A stretch of 64,000 nt of DNA, taken from NCBI RefSeq assembly GCF_003018235.1, contig NZ_CP027438.1. One strand, written 5' to 3'. The notes beneath the pieces are model-generated. The model had not been told where the DNA came from and made no database searches. It was given only the letters and a program-made list of their open reading frames with translations. This DNA comes from Escherichia coli. Lineage in GTDB: Bacteria > Pseudomonadota > Gammaproteobacteria > Enterobacterales > Enterobacteriaceae. A program made the translations under genes and the position numbers. The first letter of the stretch is position 1, and every line of letters starts with the position of its first letter. Shown one piece after another: positions 23,921 through 35,490 of the stretch.

Positions 23921-23950
23921 AGGGCCAGTAACGGCCCTTTTCTTTTTCAT
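23921..23950. terminator. Bidirectional rho-independent terminator between convergent genes
   Basis: GGGCC-agtaac-GGCCC hairpin flanked by A-run and T-run (aaaagggccagtaacggcccttttcttttt). Confidence 0.5.
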
Positions 23951-24429
23951 AATATTCTGAGCAGTCTTGCCGGGTTTCCTGCATAAATGCCTTTGTTCTC
24001 AATCGGTTTTACCACAACTGAACCCGCACCAATAACAGTTCCGCTGCATATATACGGAGACAGAATAATGGCTCCACTGCCAACAGTAACCGAATCCCCC
24101 AGGGTAATGCTGATCCAGTTATCCGGTGACGGATCTGGTGCTCCTGAACGAAACAGATCGTTGGCGAACGTCACGTTATGACCAATGAAGCAGTTCTCCC
24201 CCAGTGTTACGTTCTCACAAATAAACGTGTGCGACTGTATCCGGCTTCCACTACCAATGACACAGCCTTTCTGTATCTCAACGAAGGGGCCGACAAACAC
24301 GTTGTCCCTGAGTTCACATTCATAAATGTTGACCGGTTTGACAATACGGACATTGGTCCCATAAATCACATCCCGGACAGCACATTCCATAAATTTCATA
24401 CTCACACGTCCTTTAAATACAGATGACAC
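23947..24429 (-). CDS. Hexapeptide-repeat (left-handed beta-helix) acyl/acetyltransferase
   Basis: Repeated [LIV]G-x4 hexapeptides (VIGSGSRI, VTLGENCFIGHNV, ITLGDSVTVGSGAII, VIGAGSVV); 160 aa. Confidence 0.6.
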   Translation of the reverse strand: MSSVFKGRVSMKFMECAVRDVIYGTNVRIVKPVNIYECELRDNVFVGPFVEIQKGCVIGSGSRIQSHTFICENVTLGENCFIGHNVTFANDLFRSGAPDPSPDNWISITLGDSVTVGSGAIILSPYICSGTVIGAGSVVVKPIENKGIYAGNPARLLRIL

Positions 24430-24726
24430 TTGCCGGAATTATACAGCCCAGATTCACTTGCCATGTTTCAGAATAGCTTATAAGCCGCACTTTTACCGAT
24501 ACTCAGCAACAAATCAGGTCTGGATCCACTTCAGCCGGAAACCGGATCTGCGCGGCAGAAAAGACGCAAATAATATGATAATAAACAATACACATAAAAT
24601 CATATCAGATATGATTTTCATCATTAATTATGAAACCATATCTGATATTATTAATAATCAATAACACACAAATCATTCAGGATATGATTTTTACCTGTCA
24701 GAACATTATCAGATGGAGCGTGCAGG

Positions 24727-24987
24727 ATGGATCAGGAAATGACGTTTTCACTCAGCTATGAACAACTGACCCGGTTTGCGGAAAAACGCATCCGGGAATG
24801 CAATCTGGACAGCCAGGGCGTAACTTATCTCTGCGAGTCAGCCAAAGCCGGAGCCGTGCTGATCTTCTGGCATGAACTGGCCATAAATGGCTATACCTCA
24901 ATGAATGCCATAAAGAGACAGGAGATCATTGACGCCGACCATCAGCGCCTCAGAAAGCTCATCTGGCCGGAGGATGACTGGAAATGA
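24727..24987 (+). CDS. Hypothetical protein (86 aa)
   Basis: ORF translationally coupled (ATGA) to the downstream 196-aa ORF; GC-rich module. Confidence 0.3.
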   Translation: MDQEMTFSLSYEQLTRFAEKRIRECNLDSQGVTYLCESAKAGAVLIFWHELAINGYTSMNAIKRQEIIDADHQRLRKLIWPEDDWK

Positions 24988-25574
24988 CTCAGAGCCGCCG
25001 ACCGTCGCCACTGCAGCGGAGAGTGCTGATTGTGCTGGCTGCCCTTGATGAAAAACGGCCAGGCCCCGTGCTGACGCGGGACATAGAGCGGGTGCTGGAG
25101 CGAAGCGGGGAAGCCCCGGTCTACGGGCCAAACCTGCGCGCCTCCTGCCGTCGTCTGGAGGATGCCGGCTGGCTGCGTACCCTGCGCGCTCCGAACCTGC
25201 AGCTGGCAGTGGAGCTGACGGACGCCGGCCGTTCCGTGGCACAGCCTCTGCTGCTGGCAGAACAGGACCGCCTCTGGGCAGAACAGCGTGCGGCAGAAGT
25301 CGTCGTACTGCCGCTGGTCCCGGCAGCAGGTCTGCCCGCAGACGGCACTTCTGCCACTGATCTGGCGGTGCATCTGAACGGCATAACGTATCAGGCCTGC
25401 CGTGGGGATTTTGTGGTGCGTCTCGACGGCAGCACCTGTCTGCAGTTATGGAATAAAGAAGGCAGAGTGGTACGCCGGGAGGGCGATCCGCTGGAAGTGG
25501 CGCAGTGGCTGCAGGCCTGTCACGATGCAGGAATGGAGGTTCGCGTACAGATAAATGAAAGTACCGCTCCGTAA
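24984..25574 (+). CDS. Hypothetical protein with putative winged-helix N-terminus (196 aa)
   Basis: Balanced composition on plus strand (RRVLIVLAALDEK...LTRDIERVLER); the antisense ORF is Pro/Arg-rich junk. Confidence 0.35.
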   Translation: MTQSRRPSPLQRRVLIVLAALDEKRPGPVLTRDIERVLERSGEAPVYGPNLRASCRRLEDAGWLRTLRAPNLQLAVELTDAGRSVAQPLLLAEQDRLWAEQRAAEVVVLPLVPAAGLPADGTSATDLAVHLNGITYQACRGDFVVRLDGSTCLQLWNKEGRVVRREGDPLEVAQWLQACHDAGMEVRVQINESTAP

Positions 25575-25593
25575 GAACACGCCTGTGCACGGT

Positions 25594-25941
25594 TTACACA
25601 TCATCCCATGGTGGCAGCCGGTTAACTTTCCTGCGCCACCAGTGGAAAGAGGCCATGCACAGTCCGAACAAAAAACCACCCGTGATACTTATAATAATGG
25701 CCTCACCTGCCACCATTCCTGACGTCCCCCAGTAGATAAACCACATTGCACATCCCCAGGAAATGCCCCATAAGCTCCCCATCAACAGCGTGACCTGCCA
25801 GAACGGCATAAAGGGTAATGGCGGAAGCCGGATACCCAGCCGCCATAGAATACGCAGAAGAGGAGGGGCATAATTGCTCCGCCACATCTTTTTGCTGTCC
25901 ATCAGGGCAATGGCCCGGGCTTTTTTCTGCTCAAAGGTCAC
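25594..25941 (-). CDS. Hypothetical membrane protein (115 aa, two TM segments)
   Basis: Two hydrophobic, Trp/Gly-rich segments; no recognisable family. Confidence 0.3.
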   Translation of the reverse strand: MTFEQKKARAIALMDSKKMWRSNYAPPLLRILWRLGIRLPPLPFMPFWQVTLLMGSLWGISWGCAMWFIYWGTSGMVAGEAIIISITGGFLFGLCMASFHWWRRKVNRLPPWDDV

Positions 25942-26069
25942 AGGAGCACCTCCGTTCCATGATGTAAACGTGACACAGATTATTGTTATTGATTATTATT
26001 ATCATGCTGTGATTATGTTGTCATGCACCGGTACACTGACAAAAGAAAGGGAGAACAGGAGGCTGGCTG

Positions 26070-26405
26070 ATGAACAGGAAATATTATCTTAATAATATGT
26101 GGTGGGGATGGTTTATGGGTGGGTATACTCTGTATATGTCATGAGATTATGAGTTTAAATACAGATTGCTGTTCTGGTGTATTTCTCTCTGCGGAATGGT
26201 TTTGTATCCGGTTGCCAGATGGTGTATTGAAAATACTGCCCTGAAATTTACCCGGCCTCATTTCTGGAATAGCGGTTTTTTTGCTGATACTCCCGGAAAA
26301 ATGGGATTACTTGCGGTTTATACGGGTACTGTTTTCATATTATCTCTTCCGTTAACTCTGATATATATTCTTTCTGTTATCATAAAAAGGCTGTCTGTAA
26401 GATAG
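26070..26405 (+). pseudogene. imm: Colicin Ia/Ib immunity-like gene with in-frame TGA at codon 25
   Basis: ATG 26070 has a strong SD (caGGAGGctggctgATG); in-frame TGA at 26142-26144; frame continues into the hydrophobic ORF 26166-26405; convergent with the colicin gene. Confidence 0.55.
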
Positions 26406-26426
26406 ACAGCCTGTCTTATATATTAT

Positions 26427-28306
26427 TTAAATGCCCCAGAACTTATTCGCTTTTTCCACAAGCGTTTCATCAATCAGAGCACCGGTGACAGCCATCAGTA
26501 AACCATACCCGATAATGCCTAAAGCGCTTCCGGTAAGAATACTGAAGACCAGAGCAACAAGAGCCGTTGCGGCATTACCTGCTATGATGGTTTCTGTTTT
26601 AACAAAAAAAGGACGCCAGTTATCTGTCCGGGCAGCCTTACCAAACTCAGTGATCCAGTCAGCAAAATTTGTAATTTTTCCTGCATATCCCAGTCCGCGA
26701 CTGAACCTGTTCAGATTAGACGATATATCAGACAGCTTCACAGACTCAAGGGCTGCGGCAATCGCTGCACGATCTTTTGCATTAATTTTTTTGTTAATGT
26801 CAGCCCGGTACTTTTCATACGTTTTTAATGCCTCTTCAACATTACGTATTTTCTTCCCTTTAGCCTGCCCGGCCATCTCTCTGGCTAACTGCTCAGCTTT
26901 TGCACCATATTTTTCTGAAACTGATTTCAGGAACTCTGTTGTGAAATTAATTGCGTCTTTCGTTGCCTTCAGTTCATCCTGTTTTCTTTTCTCTTCCGCT
27001 ATCTTCTGATTGATGCCGGCAAGCTGGTTACGGATATTCTCTTTTTCCTTCAACAGGGCATTAAGAGCGTCATTTGCATTCTTTTGCTCATTTGTTCTGG
27101 CACTGAGGTTATTTCTCGCCGAATTTACCGCAGATTCAGCAGAGGTGATTTTATTTCTGGCATCAAGCAATCTTTGCCGTAACTTATCCCATTCAGCAAC
27201 TTCAGCATTATAAATTTTCTTGTCACCTTCCACATCCTCTGTCACCACCGGATTCCGGTCATTCAGAATATTGCGTTATAGTCCAGACCGGAATGGGTCA
27301 GAAGATAATTCAGGTTTGCACGGTTATCAATGACCGCGCTGGTTGTGATTTTTATCGTACCGGCAAATCTCGGATCACCACTCACAACAATAGAATGATT
27401 TGTTGATGAACGCCCCGGGAAATTTTCAGGGGAAACTATCGTTTTGCCGTCAGGCGTGTTTTTCTGTTGCGTCAGCTGTTGTTCAGCTCTGGTTAATGCA
27501 TTACGGGCCGTGTTAAGCGATTCCGTCACCGAACTGAGTTTATTCCGGGCCTCTGAAATGGCCCTGTCATTCCGTGTCTGCTGCCCGAGCAGACGGGCCT
27601 GTTGTGCATCAAGAACGGCAAGGGCTGCCCCGCCATTTTTTTCCAACTCTGACAACCGCGTGTCCAGAATACCTTTTCTGCGCTCGTATTCAGCAAGCAT
27701 ATCAGCGGCCTTCTTGTCTGCGTTCTGCGCATCCTTCTGCCGTTTTTCAGCCTGTTCGATTAACGACCTGGCCTCGCGGGGAGATATACGAAGAGAATCA
27801 GCATCAGCAAACAGCATCCGGCTCTCTGTATGCAGGCGGAGGGCATCATATCCGGCGATTTCAGTACGGAATCCGTATTCTCTCAGCTCTGCCTGCAGGA
27901 GTCTGAACTCCTGTCGTGTAATATCAGCGGTATCTGCGTTTCCGGCACGGAGTGTTTTCAGTGTGTTTTCATCTTTTTCCCTTGCAGCAATCGCCGCAGA
28001 GAGGCGTTTTCCGGCTTCAGTACGTTTATTCTCATTCTCTTTCTGCTGCGCGCTGAGCGTGTTTTTGTACGCTGTGATTTCCTTGTCCCTTTTTTCGATA
28101 TCACTCCGGGTTGGGGAATCATCGACCCACTCGTTTCCACCCCAGATGGTTTTGTTCCCGAAGGAATTCCATGCAGGCGGGGTACCATGAAAGACATCGA
28201 CACGTGGAGGGTTTACATAAATATCAACGGCCATAATTTCATGGCCATCTGAATCATACCCCAGCGATTCTGCACCGGGATTTGTAATACGTACAGGGTC
28301 AGACAT
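26427..28306 (-). pseudogene. cia: Colicin Ia/Ib-type pore-forming colicin, frameshifted between the central and pore-forming domains
   Basis: ORF 27263-28306 gives the N-terminal and central domains; ORF 26427-27248 in another frame gives the channel domain ending ...LVEKANKFWGI; break lies at TATAACGCAATATTCTGA. Confidence 0.75.
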
Positions 28307-28347
28307 TCGGTATCTCCTTCATCCTCTGAGGAAAACAAATGAATTAA

Positions 28348-28378
28348 CTGCTTGCATATATGGATACATATACAGTAT
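28348..28378 (-). promoter_or_regulatory. Putative tandem LexA (SOS) boxes of the colicin promoter
   Basis: Minus-strand tACTGTATATGTATCCATATATGCAAGCAGtt, i.e. CTGT...ACAG-like overlapping boxes about 40 bp upstream of the colicin start. Confidence 0.45.
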
Positions 28379-28688
28379 TAATTTATTAAGGAGAAAATGG
28401 CATGTCAAGACTTAATAATAGTGATTATCATTAACATGAGGTGGTGTTATACCGTTCAGAAAGCCTGCTGACGCTGTGGCAGCATCACAGTCTGAGTATT
28501 CTCTGGTGCAATACAAAATTGACTCTTTGCAAAATCGCACTCAACACGTTTTATCTGTGCGTATAGCTTGCGGCATGACAAGACATAGATTTGATTACTG
28601 TCACAAAAGTAAGTAAAAACTTTATCATCTATCACACCGAATATTTTAAGAATTAGACGAGACGCAAAAACAGAAGATAGTGCACTAA

Positions 28689-28958
28689 TTATTGCAAGGA
28701 GATTTTTATATGTGTTATCTGATTTTTTATTTTTTCACTAATATATACAAATAAAAACAAGGCAAAAAATATAATTGTATACATGCATGTTATTACATAT
28801 GACTTATCTGTTGGAGGAGGTGGTAAAAACTGGAGAGGGGATACAAGTAATACAAGGAAAAAGAAAGTTAAAGTTTTCTTTTCCTTGTTATCGTATTTTC
28901 CCAATAGAAACAAATATGACAATATAATTAAAAGCATGGATGTATATATGCTAATCAT
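28689..28958 (-). CDS. Hypothetical small membrane protein (89 aa)
   Basis: Two hydrophobic helices separated by a KYDNKEKK loop; very AT-rich. Confidence 0.3.
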   Translation of the reverse strand: MISIYTSMLLIILSYLFLLGKYDNKEKKTLTFFFLVLLVSPLQFLPPPPTDKSYVITCMYTIIFFALFLFVYISEKIKNQITHIKISLQ

Positions 28959-29158
28959 TGTATGCTCCTTTAATGACAGGATGATTGGCCGTTTTTACCT
29001 GTAGCTTTTATTGCTCCTGATGCTGAAGAACTTAAAACAGTGCTTGCGATAGCTCCTTTTACAGTATTACCAAAAAATACATTGTCTGTCATGCCGCCAA
29101 CAAAGCCGGCTCCTGCACTTAATCCGGCACCGCTCCAGCTAATAATTTTTCGGTTCAA

Positions 29159-29563
29159 TCACCGGAAGAAATTATCAACGTAATCATCCCATGCATGCCC
29201 CTGAACAGACCACTCACGATTAACCGGAGGCGGGAATCCACTTCGACAGTAGCCGTTCTTCCCCTCAAAATCAAATACACCATGTGGATATCCGTTTATC
29301 AGCAGAACACACTTCAGGCAGTCCTCAGACCAGCCAATCTTCACATCAGAGGGGATGTGAGCATCTGAAATATCTTCAACGTTATATATATGCACAGCAT
29401 CCCTGACAGGGTTACCTTCAGCGGACTCATCAAGTGCATAGAAATATCCGGTATTCCCGTCATCTTCAAATACAGCGGCCAACATTCCATCAGGAGCTAA
29501 ACTTTTTATCGCCATAGCCTCACCAACTATGAGTTGAGTCTGTGCCGTCACGAGTATTGTCAT
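29159..29563 (-). CDS. Hypothetical protein (134 aa) ending at a TGA; the frame continues into a 62-codon Gly/Ala/Ser-rich segment
   Basis: Stop TGA (29159-29161) directly abuts TTG-initiated ORF 28970-29158 in the same frame (GAGLSAGAGFVGG glycine-zipper-like). Confidence 0.3.
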   Translation of the reverse strand: MTILVTAQTQLIVGEAMAIKSLAPDGMLAAVFEDDGNTGYFYALDESAEGNPVRDAVHIYNVEDISDAHIPSDVKIGWSEDCLKCVLLINGYPHGVFDFEGKNGYCRSGFPPPVNREWSVQGHAWDDYVDNFFR

Positions 29564-29732
29564 AAAACATGTCTCTCCGTTCCAGTTTGTCTGATGATAT
29601 AAATCCCCCGGGACTCATCCCGGCAGGTAAAATCATACTCTCAACAAAACTTTTCTTCTCCTGCCTCAGGCGAGTCCACAGAGAAAATAACAATTCTGAG
29701 AGTTATCTGCGGGAAAGGCTATTTATATGTTA

Positions 29733-30020
29733 CTATCTCATTCTCTCACTGGCGAGATTATAAACGTTACTACGTTCTCGTTTTCCTACCGCAACAACCG
29801 CAATAATTAACATATCGTCAATCACCTGATAAACCAGACGAAATCCCGATGCACGTAGTTTAATTTTGTAGCAGTCCTTTAGCCCTCTTAGTTTTGCCGA
29901 CGGTATATGAGGATTTTCGCTGCATTTTTTTAGTTTTTTCACAAACTGTTGTTGAATGGTCTTATCCAGTTTCAGCCATTCCTTGAGCGCATCATCCCTG
30001 AATTTTACCGTATAAGTCAT
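29733..30020 (-). CDS. relE: RelE/ParE-family mRNA interferase toxin
   Basis: 95 aa with RelE motifs (LRGLKDCYKIKLRASGFRLVYQV...VVAVGKRERS); overlaps antitoxin stop. Confidence 0.8.
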   Translation of the reverse strand: MTYTVKFRDDALKEWLKLDKTIQQQFVKKLKKCSENPHIPSAKLRGLKDCYKIKLRASGFRLVYQVIDDMLIIAVVAVGKRERSNVYNLASERMR

Positions 30021-30268
30021 AAATAACTGTCCAGGTCCACATCATGCAGTGGCTGATTGCTGCGCTCAGTAACCAGTTTCACCAGTTCCTGGTCATCCAG
30101 AGCATCAAGCATCCTTTCATACAGTTCAGCAGGCACACAGTAGAATGCCGGCTGATTCCGGTTAAGAATGGCGACAGGGTAACCATCTCCGGCACTGACT
30201 GTAGCCATAGGATTTTTTTTCAGTTCACTGACACTTGCACTGGTGTCAGACAGAATGATGTTAGGCAT
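30017..30268 (-). CDS. relB: RelB antitoxin
   Basis: 83 aa from ATG 30268 (MPNIILSDTSASVSELKKNP...); 4-nt overlap with relE. Confidence 0.8.
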   Translation of the reverse strand: MPNIILSDTSASVSELKKNPMATVSAGDGYPVAILNRNQPAFYCVPAELYERMLDALDDQELVKLVTERSNQPLHDVDLDSYL

Positions 30269-31230
30269 AACGCACCTTTGAGACTGTTTAACAAGTCTTA
30301 ACGATATCCCTGAAACGACCACTTAACAAGTCTTTATTACTCACACTTTTGCAAATGCATTAAATGCTGCTTGTATTATTCTGATGCCGTGTCAGCGGCA
30401 TGGAAGGCGGTACTCCGTTGTTGCATATGATACCGGAGTAAAACCGCCGAAGCCCGGCGTAAGCCGGTACTGATTGACAGATTTCACCTTACCCCTCCAG
30501 CCCTGCCAGGCCATACCCGCGTTCAGCCATGACAGAACTTCTGTGCGCGGTCGGAGTGGTCCCGACAAGGGTTTACCCGAAGTCGGGGCGTATCTCCGCG
30601 TTAGCGGGCCGTCAGGGCCGCTTACGAGCGTGTACTGAGGACTTCCAGCCAGAACACTGACAGCAATGATGTTGTATAGTTACAACATTCATAATTAAAA
30701 GCGATGTTGTTCCCGCCCTTTGGGCGGGGGCGGCGGCGCTTTTCAGTTATGAGGAGGGGCATTGTGGTTTCAGTTCTGCGCGGACCGGGGTTTTTCCGGT
30801 GGTTGTATTTGAGTGTTGTAACTAAAATGACTCCGGTCGGGGCCCGCCGCTTGCGGTGGGAGGTGCATATCTGTCTGTCCACAGGACAGGCAGTGAACAG
30901 GTTTTCTTTTTAAATGAATGTAATTAAGTAGTTTAAAGGAGATATAAACAGGTGTTTAAAAGATACATTGCACCCTGTAAGACTGGCGGCTGGCGCTTTA
31001 TGACATGAACGGTTGTAACCTTATGGGGAAGTCCCTTGCAGTTAAATGTGGATAAGCAAAATTCCCCGTCGCTGAGGCGTATTTTGTATTAAAAACAGGA
31101 GGAACCGGATGCACCAGAAGGTGGATGGTGAGGTTGTTTTTTGTATGTGGTGCTGATTTTTTGTGCGCTGACGGGCTTCAGGCGTGCGAATGCCTCCGGC
31201 GCGTGCCGGATTATTCTGAGGAGGTCACTT

Positions 31231-32100
31231 TCAGGGGGAAGCTGTGGCCAGGCGGCTGTAATTGCGGTTACGTGACAGAATCATGCGCTCCTTCACACGA
31301 CGCTCCACTTCGCGTTTTACCGCCTCACGATTGGCAGTGAAGCGCCCTTCCGAGATTTCACGCGTCAGCTGCCGTTTCACCAGGGTGACGATATCCTGAC
31401 GTTCCCTGTTCGCATCACGACGCGCACGGGCACGTTTTATTCCACGGGACTTAAGCTCTGTCTGGTAACTGCGGAAACGCTCACGCACAAAACGCCAGGC
31501 TTTCGCTATCAGCTCATCCATACCCAGGGTATCCAGCCCCTGCTTTTTGCGCTGTTTGTTTTCCCATTCAACACGACTGCGGCGCGCAGCTGCCACTGCA
31601 TCCTCAGACACATCAAGGGCAGCAAACAGAGCCAGTGTGAACGTGATGTCGGTCGGAATGTAGCACCCGATAAGCGGGTCATATTCCGTCTGGTAGGTAA
31701 TCAACCCCAGCTCTGACAGGAACGTCAGGGCACGGGTGGCACGGGTGATGGAGAGTTTTCCGGCAGCAGACTCCGTCGCCAGTCCGCACTCAATGGCCAG
31801 CGTGGTGATGGAGCACTGGACGCGGTTGGCCAGCGGGTCATAGTGGAAACACAGCCCCTGCAGGAGCGCATCAATAGCCCGTCGACGCAGTACCGGTGGC
31901 ATGCGTCGACGCAGACCACGCGAACGGGCATGCGCCACATGAATGGCGAAATCAAAACGGGAAGTGAAGCCCACCGCCTTTTCCATCAGTTTTTCGCAGA
32001 ACTTCAGCGTTCCGGCACCTTTACGGGGTGTAAACACCGGATTCGGGTTCTTTACCTGGCGGTAATACGTTTGTTGAAGATCAGTCACACCATCCTGCAC
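31231..32100 (-). CDS. repA: RepFIIA replication initiator RepA1
   Basis: 289 aa closely resembling IncFII RepA1 ([20 protein letters not shown]...[11 protein letters not shown]); CopA/CopB control region upstream. Confidence 0.85.
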
Positions 32101-32164
32101 TTATGTTGCACAGAAGGAGTGAGCACAGAAAGAAGTCTTGAACTTTTCCGGGCATATAACTATA

Positions 32165-32262
32165 CTCCCCGCATAGAGCAACAGCTTCTATGCAGTTTCT
32201 TGTTAGCCCCGGTAATCTTCTTCGTCGCCAAACATAGAAAGATTATCGGGGTTTTCGCTTTT
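32165..32262 (+). ncRNA. copA: CopA-like antisense RNA of the RepFIIA replicon (approximate bounds)
   Basis: Antisense to the repA1 leader; plus-strand hairpin CCCCGGTAATCTTC...GAAGATTATCGGGG followed by TTTTCGCTTTTCT. Confidence 0.45.
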
Positions 32263-32385
32263 CTGGCTCCTGTAAATCCACATCAGAACCAGTTCCCTGC
32301 CACCTTACGGCGTGGCCAGCCACAAAATTCCTTAAACGATCAGCAATCTATCACTCACGCCTGAGATAAGCAAGAATGTGAATAT

Positions 32386-32643
32386 TTACGAAGTCGCTCT
32401 GCGTTTCAGCTCTGATTCAATCAGTTTTTCAAGCATCTGCGCCTGGGTAATACCTTCCTCATCCGCCAGTTCACTCAGCCTGTCTTTTAACCGGGCCTGG
32501 ATAACCGCATGAAAAGCCTTATGAGTGTTGCTTCTGCGAGCCAGAGAAGCTCTTTGCCTCTCTCTGGCCGGAACAGGGTTACCTTTCCGGTATGCACGCT
32601 TGGTGCCTGATGAGGAAGTCACTGCATTTTCTATCTGCGACAT
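32386..32643 (-). CDS. copB: RepFIIA copy-number repressor RepA2/CopB
   Basis: 85-aa basic protein with MSQ.ENAVTSS N-terminus and EGITQAQ motif; position upstream of repA1. Confidence 0.7.
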
Positions 32644-32926
32644 CTCGCCTCCTCAATACTCGAACAGAGATCGTTTCGCGGAGGATACTACAGTTTTTTG
32701 AAATCAGCGACTTGAAAGTTGTAACGATGCTCAGTGTTGGCGCATAAATCATGTCTGATTACGATCGTTTAATGTGATTTTGATTATGAAATGACTGAAA
32801 AGCAGGAAATGCCTTAACCTGGATGCCGGCCCCGGGCGGGACCGGCTGTTTCTGGCATGTCGGGTGTTTGCCCCTGAAATACCTCACACTTCCGGAAAGC
32901 GGGGACTTCCGTCCCCGCCCGGCAGC

Positions 32927-33076
32927 TTACTTCCGTGCTTCGTAGGCCAGAGTTACCTGCACCACTGTATTTCCCCTGTGAATACTCAGCTCACATAACC
33001 GTTCCCTGAATATCAGTGAAAAACACAACACCGTGGCGCACACGGCAAGCAACCCGATAAGGGCATACTTCGTCAT
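32927..33076 (-). CDS. srnB: Hok/Gef-family membrane toxin (SrnB/PndA-like), 49 aa
   Basis: Manual translation MTKYALIGLLAVCATVLCFSLIFRERLCELSIHRGNTVVQVTLAYEARK; absent from the ORF track because it is under 60 aa. Confidence 0.8.
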   Translation of the reverse strand: MTKYALIGLLAVCATVLCFSLIFRERLCELSIHRGNTVVQVTLAYEARK

Positions 33077-33345
33077 AAACTTTGACCTCTCTGCAAGGAA
33101 GAGGCTACAATCAGTAGTGCAACGTACTTCATGCAGACCTCACGAGTTAATGGATTAACGAGTGGGGTCTTCGCATTTCTGGTACCTGCGTCTTGCCTGA
33201 ACCAGAAAGGCTCAGACACCCGCCGCGATAATACCACATTCCCTGTTGCTGACTATTACCCCCATTTACCTGTTTGGTTACAGAAACCTTTGTCATCGTG
33301 CCAGAAAATTAATAGTCAGCACACACAATCTGGCAATAGTTAAAT

Positions 33346-35490
33346 TTAATCAACGCCCCCCTTGTATTTATTATCGCCAGATAATGAAATCTCCTTAACT
33401 CTCCCTCCCTCAATATTTATGATCTTGTCAGTTGCACTAAGTACATCATCTTTATGGCTCACAATAATCTTAGTACAATCAAGAGACAATATTACCTGAT
33501 TAATTTCATATTCTGACTCTGCATCAAGATTACTGGTTGCTTCATCAAGTATTAATAACTTTGGTTTCCTGAATAAAGCTCTGGCTAACAGGATTTTCTG
33601 CTTCTGCCCTGCAGATAAAATATTTCCGGCATCATTGACAGGAGTGAAATACCCCATAGGAAGCCTTTCTATTATATCATGGATGCCAATTTTTTTTGTT
33701 AGTTCCAATAACTCAGGGGAGGGTGTCGAGTCATTGAATGTTATATTATAGATTATTGTTCCATTTAAAAGAATATCACCCTGTAAAACAGTGCCGGACA
33801 CACTTCTGATATCTTCTATTTTATTGTTTTTGTCACCATCTGTAAAGATAATATGACCACCACTCAATTCTACCAACCCCAAAATAGCATAAAGAAGAGA
33901 TGTCTTTCCCCCTCCAGATTTGCCTCTGAGAAGAACTGTCTCCCCAGGGTATATTTTTAGGTTAACGTCAGTTAAAACATTAACTTCTCTGCCATGATAT
34001 TTCATACTCAAATTAACGCACTCAATACCAACTGCTCCATGAGTATCTTTCCCGGATAAAGTGAAAGGTATCTTCTCATAATCTGCATCAGATATATCTG
34101 AAACTCTTGAAATATGTATGCGAATAACACCAAGCTGGATAAAGAAATCAATCATGTTAGTCACCCTTCTGCTGAACTGTTCTGAATATGCAATAAAAGC
34201 GACAAGCATACCAATAGTAAAGGATGAATTAATCACAAACAGTCCGCCAAAGTAAAGTATTGAGATATTTTTTACCGCCGAAAGGAGATTACTTGATGAT
34301 GAGAGCACAATATTTAATAAATCCATTTTTGTCTTTATGTTGATCCCTTCGATAAGGCTATTTTCATAAATACCTGCCGTTGTGTATTCCTGAAAGTAAA
34401 GCTTTATTGTTTGATTGTATTTGATTGACTCAATTAGTGCACTCTGTTGTCGGGCCTTAACTCTTATAGTGCCCAGATTCAGATATTTCAGAGACGAAAA
34501 ATAAAAAACCTTCAGTAAAAAATATAGCAACGATGAAAAGAACACAACAAACGTTAACACAGGGCTATAAGAACACATTATAATGAAGGCCCCTATAGCC
34601 ATAAAGAAATCCAACAAAACTTTTGTTAGCTGAGATATAACCACATTACGGATATATTCGAGAGAATTAACTCTGGATAAGATATCGCCAACACTCCTGG
34701 ATGAAAAATATTTCATTCTTAATGATATTAGACGATTATAAGCATTTGTTGCCCACTGAACGCTTATGTTTGCATTTAACCAAATAATAAGCCAGTCCCT
34801 TGTCGCCAGTATACCAATACTAACAGCATTAAGAAAAAGATAAAATATCACTGCGGTAACCAATAACTGATAGTCATCATTAACAATGACATTATCAATA
34901 ACCAGTTGAGTTATTTGCGGTATCGTAATATTGATAAGTTCAGCTAGAAAAATAAGAATAAACAGGCAGAAAAAAACATTTTTTCCTAAAAAAAACACAC
35001 TGAGAATGTAATTATATATTGTTTTATTTCTTTTCTTGTCCTTTCTTAGCTGGTAAAATATTGAACCGTCATTGTATACTTCTATTCCTACTCCGGTAAA
35101 AGACTCACTGATTTTCTGCAGCGACAAAACCTGAATGCCTTTATCCGGATCATGAACAACATACTTATTTCTCTTTCTTTTTACCAGAACAACAAAATGA
35201 TTCATATTCCAGTGAAGGATGCAAGGTAAACTTAAGCAGTTAAGCTCGTCAATGTTCAGACTGACAGCTCTTGGCATAATCCCCAAAGAACGTAATACTG
35301 ATACGATATCACTTACAGCCCACTCGTTTTTTTTGCTACTTAGTTTATCAAGCACATTCTCCAACAATCCCTCTTTCCCGTAATAACAAGCAAGCATTCT
35401 TATACATGTCAAAGCACAGTCTGAATTTTCATTCTGAAAATAAAAAGGAAATGCTCTTTTCACTTTAAAATTTAACTTATCAATAATCAT
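33346..35490 (-). CDS. Bacteriocin/microcin-type ABC exporter with N-terminal C39 peptidase domain (CvaB/MchF-like)
   Basis: C39 triad candidates (DCALTC, HFVVLVKR, HDP); six-TM domain; Walker A GKSGGGKTSL, signature LSAGQKQK, Walker B LLILDEATS; ATGA overlap with upstream MFP. Confidence 0.85.
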   Translation of the reverse strand: MIIDKLNFKVKRAFPFYFQNENSDCALTCIRMLACYYGKEGLLENVLDKLSSKKNEWAVSDIVSVLRSLGIMPRAVSLNIDELNCLSLPCILHWNMNHFVVLVKRKRNKYVVHDPDKGIQVLSLQKISESFTGVGIEVYNDGSIFYQLRKDKKRNKTIYNYILSVFFLGKNVFFCLFILIFLAELINITIPQITQLVIDNVIVNDDYQLLVTAVIFYLFLNAVSIGILATRDWLIIWLNANISVQWATNAYNRLISLRMKYFSSRSVGDILSRVNSLEYIRNVVISQLTKVLLDFFMAIGAFIIMCSYSPVLTFVVFFSSLLYFLLKVFYFSSLKYLNLGTIRVKARQQSALIESIKYNQTIKLYFQEYTTAGIYENSLIEGINIKTKMDLLNIVLSSSSNLLSAVKNISILYFGGLFVINSSFTIGMLVAFIAYSEQFSRRVTNMIDFFIQLGVIRIHISRVSDISDADYEKIPFTLSGKDTHGAVGIECVNLSMKYHGREVNVLTDVNLKIYPGETVLLRGKSGGGKTSLLYAILGLVELSGGHIIFTDGDKNNKIEDIRSVSGTVLQGDILLNGTIIYNITFNDSTPSPELLELTKKIGIHDIIERLPMGYFTPVNDAGNILSAGQKQKILLARALFRKPKLLILDEATSNLDAESEYEINQVILSLDCTKIIVSHKDDVLSATDKIINIEGGRVKEISLSGDNKYKGGVD

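Follow-up and report, generated by a model that had tools for sequence, protein, structure and literature searches.

Downstream of CDI and Rhs loci, orphan or degenerate toxin-immunity modules are known, in which 5'-truncated toxin fragments lie beside adjacent immunity genes. Colicin V, MccH47 and other class II microcins are exported by a PCAT/MFP pair. The glycine-zipper bacteriocins CdzC/CdzD of Caulobacter, which were reportedly described by Garcia-Bayona et al. in 2017 (eLife 6:e24869), are said to serve in the killing of other bacteria, to depend on type I export and to be accompanied by a dedicated immunity membrane protein. In Neisseria gonorrhoeae, the nap island encodes the GG-motif peptides NapA-C, the C39 peptidase NapP, the FapF-like channel NapF and the immunity-like protein NapI, and the Nap peptides, cationic helices of 16-36 aa, promote autolysis (PMC11798529). 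Secretion of functional amyloid by the Pseudomonas Fap system makes use of the FapF channel together with the periplasmic C39 peptidase FapD (PMC5557850).

The locus analysed here lies in a 64-kb stretch of Escherichia coli DNA (the window), whose context is that of an IncF-type plasmid of E. coli, with a phd/relE pair upstream and a colicin Ia/Ib-type gene plus its immunity gene downstream of the locus. The closest record to the window is NZ_CP076711.1, at 99.5% identity. A sequence-only reading had described a 134-codon frame ending in TGA, a 62-codon continuation in the same frame and an 89-aa ORF, and all three are present. The features of the locus are as follows.

29159-29563, minus strand: 134-codon ORF with its stop TGA at 29159-29161; the complete DUF2251 gene (134 aa), as judged from Pfam PF10008, homologue length and the conserved C-terminus
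28970-29158, minus strand: 62-codon Gly/Ala/Ser-rich ORF, in the same frame as the 134-codon ORF and directly after its TGA
29144-29158, minus strand: 3' flank of the DUF2251 module (TTGAACCGAAAAAT...), containing the TTG taken by ORF callers as the start of the 62-aa ORF
28970-29143, minus strand: remnant of a glycine-zipper toxin precursor, codons 82-138 of 138 plus stop (93% DNA identity to L010 1595-1768)
28689-28958, minus strand: 89-aa hydrophobic membrane ORF, 11 nt beyond the 62-codon ORF
28627-28958, minus strand: frameshifted copy of a 111-aa, 4-TM membrane (immunity-like) gene (blastn/tblastn to the cassette)
28562-28628, minus strand: stub of a periplasmic C39 peptidase gene, first ~22 codons (tblastn, residues 1-22 at 28628-28563)

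The translation of the 62-codon ORF is MNRKIISWSGAGLSAGAGFVGGMTDNVFFGNTVKGAIASTVLSSSASGAIKATGKNGQSSCH, and its nominal start is a TTG that abuts the TGA of the 134-codon ORF. Kyte-Doolittle analysis gave three TM-like segments in the 89-aa product, not the two originally counted. Our analysis indicates that the arrangement is very probably a decaying toxin/immunity fossil beside an intact DUF2251 gene, with a chance in-frame junction between the two and no TGA recoding.

The DUF2251 gene and its TGA

The 134-aa ORF matched Pfam PF10008 above the gathering score (E=6.6e-36; 122.9 bits, cut-off 25). Homologues of the protein numbered 564. Most of the best 120, among which are proteins of Cronobacter, Klebsiella, Citrobacter, Xenorhabdus, Providencia, Proteus, Pseudomonas and Xanthomonas, were 134-135 aa in length with 99-100% query coverage. 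Among the longer DUF2251 entries inspected, the extra residues are N-terminal and the end is still ...FFR: eight of nine proved to be N-terminal over-extensions, and the ninth (P0059) also continues beyond a frameshift. One further long entry is a genetic-code-4 gene call. Near the C-terminus, W125 and F133 do not vary among 27 diverse DUF2251 sequences that were aligned. Comparison of the gene with a 95%-identical copy in NZ_CP045714.1 gave a pS of 0.10 and a pN of 0.013, i.e., synonymous changes dominate. AF2 models the protein as a compact domain, all beta apart from a short helix at one terminus (pLDDT 86, pTM 0.81); no sequence match was found in the PDB, and a Foldseek search of the PDB with the model returned no significant match (best E 0.019). 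These data show that the 134-aa ORF is an intact DUF2251 gene and that the TGA at 29159-29161 is its native stop. The suggestion of a premature stop, or of one gene split by the TGA, was abandoned because most homologues are 134-135 aa and end in ...FFR.

What follows the stop codon was informative as to how the two frames came together. Homologues that terminate at the same position, with unrelated DNA downstream, had been named in advance as the observation that would speak against a single split gene, and such a case was found in NZ_CP045714.1, in which the DUF2251 gene has the same TGA and 16 identical nucleotides (TTGAACCGAAAAATTA) and then gives way to unrelated DNA with an alpha/beta-hydrolase gene. 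In the window, the breakpoint lies at ~29143-29145, about 14-16 nt past the TGA, and homology to the toxin cassette begins at 29143/29144. The sequence across the TGA and the breakpoint is identical in eight aligned IncF plasmids, and the left breakpoint is common to all eight. The left junction is a single old recombination event, by which an internal fragment of a four-gene Col-plasmid cassette would have been joined to the 3' flank of the DUF2251 gene; the common frame across the TGA would then be an accident of the join. Any join of two coding segments has a chance of about 1 in 3 of sharing a frame, and the in-frame continuity at 29159 carries no signal of its own.

A sequencing or assembly artefact might be suspected behind the TGA or the frame relationship, as homopolymer lengths differ between related records in this region and other genes nearby in the window are broken. 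However, eight IncF plasmids, NZ_CP045714.1 and two metagenome contigs agree exactly in the TGA and the 14 nt after it, and the DUF2251 gene is annotated as 405 nt in every record examined, so that an artefact is scarcely conceivable.

Programmed recoding, in which readthrough of the TGA, or its decoding as Sec or Trp, would yield a 197-aa protein with DUF2251 fused to the glycine zipper, would fit a frame that runs on across the TGA, and one database protein (P0089) does read ...FFRWLNRK... over this position, with W at the TGA. P0089, however, was rejected as a case of recoding: the gene was called with genetic code 4 on a metagenome contig, the source DNA (L015) keeps the TGA, and a second TGA there is also rendered as W. 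Moreover, the DUF2251 family ends at the same residue across genera, and the downstream frame, which belongs to a different block starting 14 nt later, is not conserved as a continuation: unrelated DNA takes its place in NZ_CP045714.1, and it is broken by frameshifts in two relatives (L008 and L009). An Rfam scan of 27800-30400 returned no RNA family or SECIS match at E<=1. Recoding is thus highly improbable as an account of the locus, and UGA recoding of the DUF2251 stop is essentially refuted. A false lead is thereby removed, the locus representing neither a recoded nor a split gene and showing no pattern of TGA reassignment.

The cassette remnant, its decay and its neighbours

The block beyond the breakpoint (window 29143-28562, 582 bp) aligned to the cassette copy L010 (positions 1595-2178) with 93% identity and only two 1-nt gaps, and to the plasmid pSCU-111-4 with 76% identity (blastn). 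It was by searching plasmids with the 62-aa and 89-aa ORFs (tblastn) that pSCU-111-4, the one distant relative, came to light. For the 62-aa ORF, a word-indexed homology search gave only near-identical copies and one chimera, and Pfam, NCBIfam and PADLOC scans assigned no family to either ORF. The 582-bp block runs from codon 82 of a toxin precursor gene to codon 22 of a peptidase gene, and the window therefore holds three damaged pieces.

The first piece is matched by residues 77-138 of the precursor with E=1e-28 (tblastn). It has no signal peptide and no leader, its mature domain is missing ~26 residues at the start (alignment A1), and its C-terminal motif reads GQSSCH against the conserved CQSSCH, the first Cys having been lost. 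The window ORF is hence a fragment of a family member and does not have the complete precursor architecture (Sec signal, leader motif, Gly-zipper core and C-terminal Cx2-3CH). The Gly-rich frame, which had been taken as a continuation of the 134-codon gene, is thus a 5'-truncated remnant, which in L008 and L009 also carries a frameshift of its own. In the second piece, an A-run at ~28728-28730 has lost 1 nt, which reduces the membrane protein from 111 to 89 aa with loss of the fourth TM segment, and the remainder of the gene past the deletion continues in another frame. The third piece ends with the cassette homology at 28562, 22 codons into the peptidase gene (blastn end points). The rest of the peptidase gene and the outer-membrane barrel gene were absent from the 64-kb window by tblastn, and the window accordingly carries neither the FapF-like barrel gene nor the C39 peptidase gene of a Fap/Nap-type export cassette.

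The remnant is also decaying in related plasmids. Among PLSDB and 5,426 complete E. coli genomes, a 584-bp remnant was found in ~9 plasmids and a shorter, 182-bp remnant in ~6, with an identical left end in all; the IncF copies are 98-99% identical to one another. In each of the seven IncF relatives that retain the membrane-protein gene (7/7), this gene is disrupted differently, by homopolymer frameshifts, and in L009 it also contains a stop codon; all eight IncF relatives compared have, beyond the common breakpoint, a frameshift, stop or deletion peculiar to them. L003 and several other plasmids carry a deletion from the stop of the toxin remnant to the middle of the colicin gene, and two metagenome contigs (L015 and L016) show further deletions at short repeats, in L016 at the 8-nt repeat TTTGGTAA. 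Alignment of NZ_CP076711.1 with the window over 11.7 kb shows 37 gap openings against 9 substitutions. Some of the homopolymer differences between plasmids may be sequencing or assembly errors rather than real frameshifts, and NZ_CP076711.1 clearly contains many such errors. The deletions, the L009 stop codon and the common breakpoint are not errors of the homopolymer type. Different lineages would thus appear to be erasing the remnant through frameshifts, stops and microhomology deletions. Because the immunity-like gene is broken in the window and likewise in all IncF relatives that still carry it, the module looks dead, rather than being a retained orphan immunity module.

Nevertheless, a functional module was considered, in which the 62-aa and 89-aa ORFs would form a microcin-like toxin and immunity pair, with the TTG start translationally coupled to the DUF2251 stop. 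The ancestors of the two ORFs are a toxin-like precursor gene and the adjoining membrane-protein gene; the DUF2251 stop and the TTG adjoin, an arrangement that could in principle allow termination-reinitiation; PGAP calls the 62-aa ORF a hypothetical protein in several RefSeq plasmids; and a PCAT/HlyD pair lies ~4 kb off (33346-36770), behind the plasmid replicon. Against this, the peptide has lost its signal peptide and leader motif, one conserved Cys and the N-terminal ~26 residues of its toxin domain, and there is no usable Shine-Dalgarno spacing. The membrane gene is broken here and in all seven retaining IncF relatives, the peptide ORF is frameshifted in two of the plasmids, and others have deleted parts of the block. 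The nearby PCAT, moreover, has its own 191-aa GG-leader cargo gene. By the features that mark class II microcins, the window ORF begins inside the mature domain with no N-terminal double-glycine leader, the adjacent immunity gene is not intact (89 aa, frameshifted), and the cluster lacks a cognate PCAT exporter and MFP. A scan for promoters and terminators found promoter-like sites to be no commoner than in shuffled sequence and no terminator-like site. A functional pair is therefore improbable. With the fossil as the preferred reading, the 62-aa ORF would most likely be untranslated or inert, as it has no signal peptide, leader, exporter or plausible ribosome-binding site, and the hypothetical protein of several RefSeq plasmids is a gene fragment. 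The idea of a toxin-like peptide with a small membrane immunity protein, put forward in the sequence-only reading, is thus borne out with regard to ancestry, through the 93% DNA identity to an intact Col-type cassette, but not as a present function.

The colicin module next door, whose boundary lies at 28518/28519, is damaged as well.

26427-28306, minus strand: colicin Ia/Ib-type gene, split into ORFs of 347 aa and 273 aa (compared with the intact 626-aa gene of NZ_CP134806.1)
26070-26405, plus strand: colicin Ia-type immunity gene with a nonsense TGA at codon 25 (TGG to TGA at 26142-26144)

The lesion of the colicin gene is a 1-nt deletion (TATAAACGC to TAT-AACGC) near 27278, which causes a frameshift and introduces no in-frame TGA. 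The immunity gene has TGG at codon 25 in the closest relative and encodes an intact 111-aa protein in L006. Another in-frame TGA interruption within about 3 kb had been pointed out, and the nonsense codon in the immunity gene is indeed such a TGA; the two are unrelated events, however, one being a native stop and the other a point mutation. The lesions of the colicin gene and its immunity gene are independent events in a dead colicin module and form no pattern. Homology of the Gly-rich ORF to the colicin Ia channel domain was also suspected, because P0002 fuses the two, and was rejected: the fusion arose by a 2.4-kb deletion between two copies of TTTGGTAA.

The intact parent cassette

An intact cassette is carried by pSCU-111-4 (NZ_CP051731.1), a 5.9-kb mobilisable plasmid (record circularised) with four co-oriented genes.

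Gene 1: 279/293-aa protein, FapF-like barrel
Gene 2: 141-aa precursor, MKKSFMLASSIIMIAASSFAIATQ...LSETELDETTGKMGP...CQSSCH
Gene 3: 111/118-aa membrane protein
Gene 4: 185-aa C39 peptidase with its own signal peptide

Nearer relatives of the precursor (P0005, 138 aa) are encoded by Col-type E. coli plasmids of ~6 kb that carry Rop, MobC and relaxase genes and an identical set of four cassette genes, and the four-gene order was kept in every context examined, including chromosomal and IS-flanked copies. One cassette lies directly upstream of ccmABCDEF; the other contexts examined have no ccm adjacency. The cassette is rare: the intact form occurs as one copy in PLSDB and 5,426 complete E. coli genomes, and an exhaustive profile search of 1.84 billion proteins yielded 23 representative clusters of the precursor family.

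The AF2 model of the 279-aa protein is a 12-stranded barrel (pLDDT 77), and FapF accounts for every one of its 18 highest PDB matches (best E=4.6e-10, TM ~0.6). The peptidase matched Pfam Peptidase_C39 with E=2e-21 and 76.7 bits (cut-off 22). Its best NCBIfam match is FapD, with 62.5 bits; this score is far under the equivalog cut-off of 330, and hence the cassette peptidase is homologous to FapD but is not FapD itself. Members of the precursor family combine a signal peptide, a leader-like L-S-x-x-E-(L/M)-x-E-T-(K/T)-G-K and a core ...ADRPINWTxAGIxAGAGFV...; in the intact precursor, the leader-like motif LSETELDETTGK occupies residues 42-53. A Cx2-3CH motif is present within the final 16 residues in 17 of 21 family members. 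Scans of Pfam, NCBIfam and PADLOC assigned the intact precursor to no family. BLASTP also placed the Gly-zipper core in Rhs-type proteins, as their C-terminal toxin domain (E=3e-9), and in two Rhs-type matches it starts directly after the DPxG cleavage motif, which is the position of the toxin domain.

The architecture, the conserved gene order and the sharing of a domain with Rhs proteins make toxin/immunity the most likely function of the cassette, and the intact form most likely encodes a toxin that is secreted and targets membranes, together with a membrane protein that confers immunity to it, as far as can be judged from sequence. In such an intact ancestor, Sec would export the precursor, the periplasmic C39 peptidase would cut after LSxxE(L/M)xET(T/K)GK, and the product would cross the FapF-like barrel and act as a membrane-targeting bacteriocin, with the 111-aa membrane protein protecting the producer. 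CxxCH is the attachment motif for c-type haem; covalent haem on the cassette product is speculative. A bolder proposal, which we regard as conceivable but rather doubtful, is that the window holds a fossil of an undescribed class of Gram-negative bacteriocin, in which a Sec-exported Gly-zipper toxin would be matured at its double-glycine-like leader by a stand-alone periplasmic C39 peptidase and secreted through a FapF-like channel. Its Cx2-3CH might be a haem site, serving, e.g., to hijack haem-uptake receptors as siderophore-microcins do catecholate receptors, and the IncF copies would be relics once kept as orphan immunity.

This uncharacterised, compact and mobile four-gene parent cassette is a more interesting by-product of the analysis than the window feature itself. 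It would extend the two-step peptide export of the Fap and Nap systems to plasmid-borne bacteriocin-like toxins, and it raises a testable question on the C-terminal CxxCH motif.

Comparison with described systems

Like the orphan modules of CDI and Rhs loci, the window contains a toxin fragment that has neither its 5' end nor the signals for translation and export and is directly followed by the cognate small membrane-protein gene, and the fragment has been moved into a new context by recombination. Unlike in those modules, the immunity-like gene is broken too, and the remnant sits behind an unrelated DUF2251 gene instead of a full-length toxin locus. With class II microcins, the parent cassette shares a leader-like LSxxELxxxxG-x, a Gly/Ala/Ser-rich mature part of ~8 kDa, a plasmid location and a small membrane immunity-like gene directly downstream. 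It differs from them in that the leader is internal, behind a Sec signal, and in having a periplasmic C39 peptidase and an outer-membrane barrel for export; the window ORF, for its part, has no leader of any kind. CdzC/CdzD are likewise small glycine-zipper proteins with a membrane immunity protein, but the resemblance is in kind only, since these type I-exported proteins showed no detectable sequence similarity.

A description of the four-gene cassette was not found in the published literature searched, in which Fap and Nap were the only analogues. The nap island is the nearest published analogue of the parent cassette, followed by the Fap system. In both the nap island and the cassette, a C39 peptidase that stands alone is encoded together with a FapF-like barrel, a peptide that has a leader and a small membrane protein. 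Unlike the Nap peptides, the cassette precursor is 130-160 aa long and has a Sec signal, a leader ending in GK rather than GG, an Rhs-type Gly-zipper core and a C-terminal Cx2-3CH, and no export gene survives in the window. The likeness to the Fap system lies in the barrel, which matches FapF best, in the peptidase, whose best NCBIfam match is FapD, and in Sec-dependent substrates; homologues of FapA, FapB, FapC and FapE are lacking from the parent cassette. Given its location on small mobilisable Col-type plasmids and its immunity-like gene, the parent cassette points to a bacteriocin rather than to a biofilm fibre.

The intact cassette and its precursor family

The four-gene cassette, which survives in the window as a decayed fragment, is mobile and is found intact in the following records:

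L010, 505-2669: intact four-gene cassette; also in L005 (NZ_CP051731.1, circularised), L014 and L018-L024
L018 (GCA_000826725.2, AZAB02000090.1), 2313-7780: cassette with ccmABCDEF directly after it

Its products are a FapF-like barrel, a precursor with a Sec signal, a leader and a Gly-zipper, a membrane protein of about 100-111 aa, and a FapD-like periplasmic C39 peptidase; no published description of this cassette was found in the literature searched. The precursor ends in Cx2-3CH, a c-type haem attachment motif, in 17 of the 21 family members. Adjacent ccm genes were absent from the cassette contexts compared other than L018. It is possible that the secreted peptide carries attached haem.

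An artefactual protein record and a public record with probable sequencing errors

One protein record, P0089, has the appearance of a fusion:

L015 (ENA ERZ27318363 k119_60509), 73-594: P0089, 173 aa, with two TGA codons read as Trp

P0089 was considered as a read-through protein and rejected, since the gene had been called with genetic code 4 on a contig that is E. coli-plasmid-like. It is an annotation artefact, by which read-through searches could be misled. The closest public record, L002 (NZ_CP076711.1), differs from window 23945-35693 by 37 gap openings and just 9 substitutions, and because homopolymers are shorter in L002 at nearly all of these gaps, this record probably contains uncorrected long-read errors, which would explain why its genes across the matching region are mostly without annotation.

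The colicin module and the exporter cluster

The colicin Ia/Ib-type module (window 26070-28306) looks to carry two inactivating lesions: a 1-nt deletion near 27278, which breaks the colicin gene into ORFs of 347 aa and 273 aa, and a nonsense codon (TGG to TGA) at 26142-26144 in the immunity gene. Both genes are intact in plasmid NZ_CP134806.1. Features near the module, and those of a separate AT-rich cluster, are as follows:

25594-25941, minus strand: gene for a 115-aa DUF6404 protein (Pfam match at E=1.4e-37)
28519-28561: 43-bp stretch between the colicin-module boundary (28518/28519) and the end of cassette homology (28562)
33346-37724, minus strand: AT-rich cluster
33346-35490, minus strand: C39-ABC exporter gene, after the 191-aa ORF
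35487-36770, minus strand: HlyD-type membrane fusion protein (MFP) gene, after the 191-aa ORF
37149-37724, minus strand: ORF of 191 aa whose double-glycine leader is canonical (MRKLTFNECNCIYGG followed by G...)

Every ColIa-type plasmid listed has the DUF6404 gene alongside the colicin Ia immunity gene, and the 43-bp stretch is common to all IncF relatives that still retain that segment. The 191-aa ORF matched no Pfam family, and no immunity gene was identified between it and the MFP gene; its product may serve as bacteriocin cargo of the class II type, in which case it would be unusually large for one.

The Gly-zipper core in Rhs-type proteins

In two Rhs-type proteins of the representative library, P0141 and P0144, the Gly-zipper core of the cassette precursor starts straight behind the DPxG cleavage motif. 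Because the same core forms their C-terminal domain, it is, on sequence grounds, a polymorphic-toxin module that the cassette precursor and these Rhs-type proteins hold in common.
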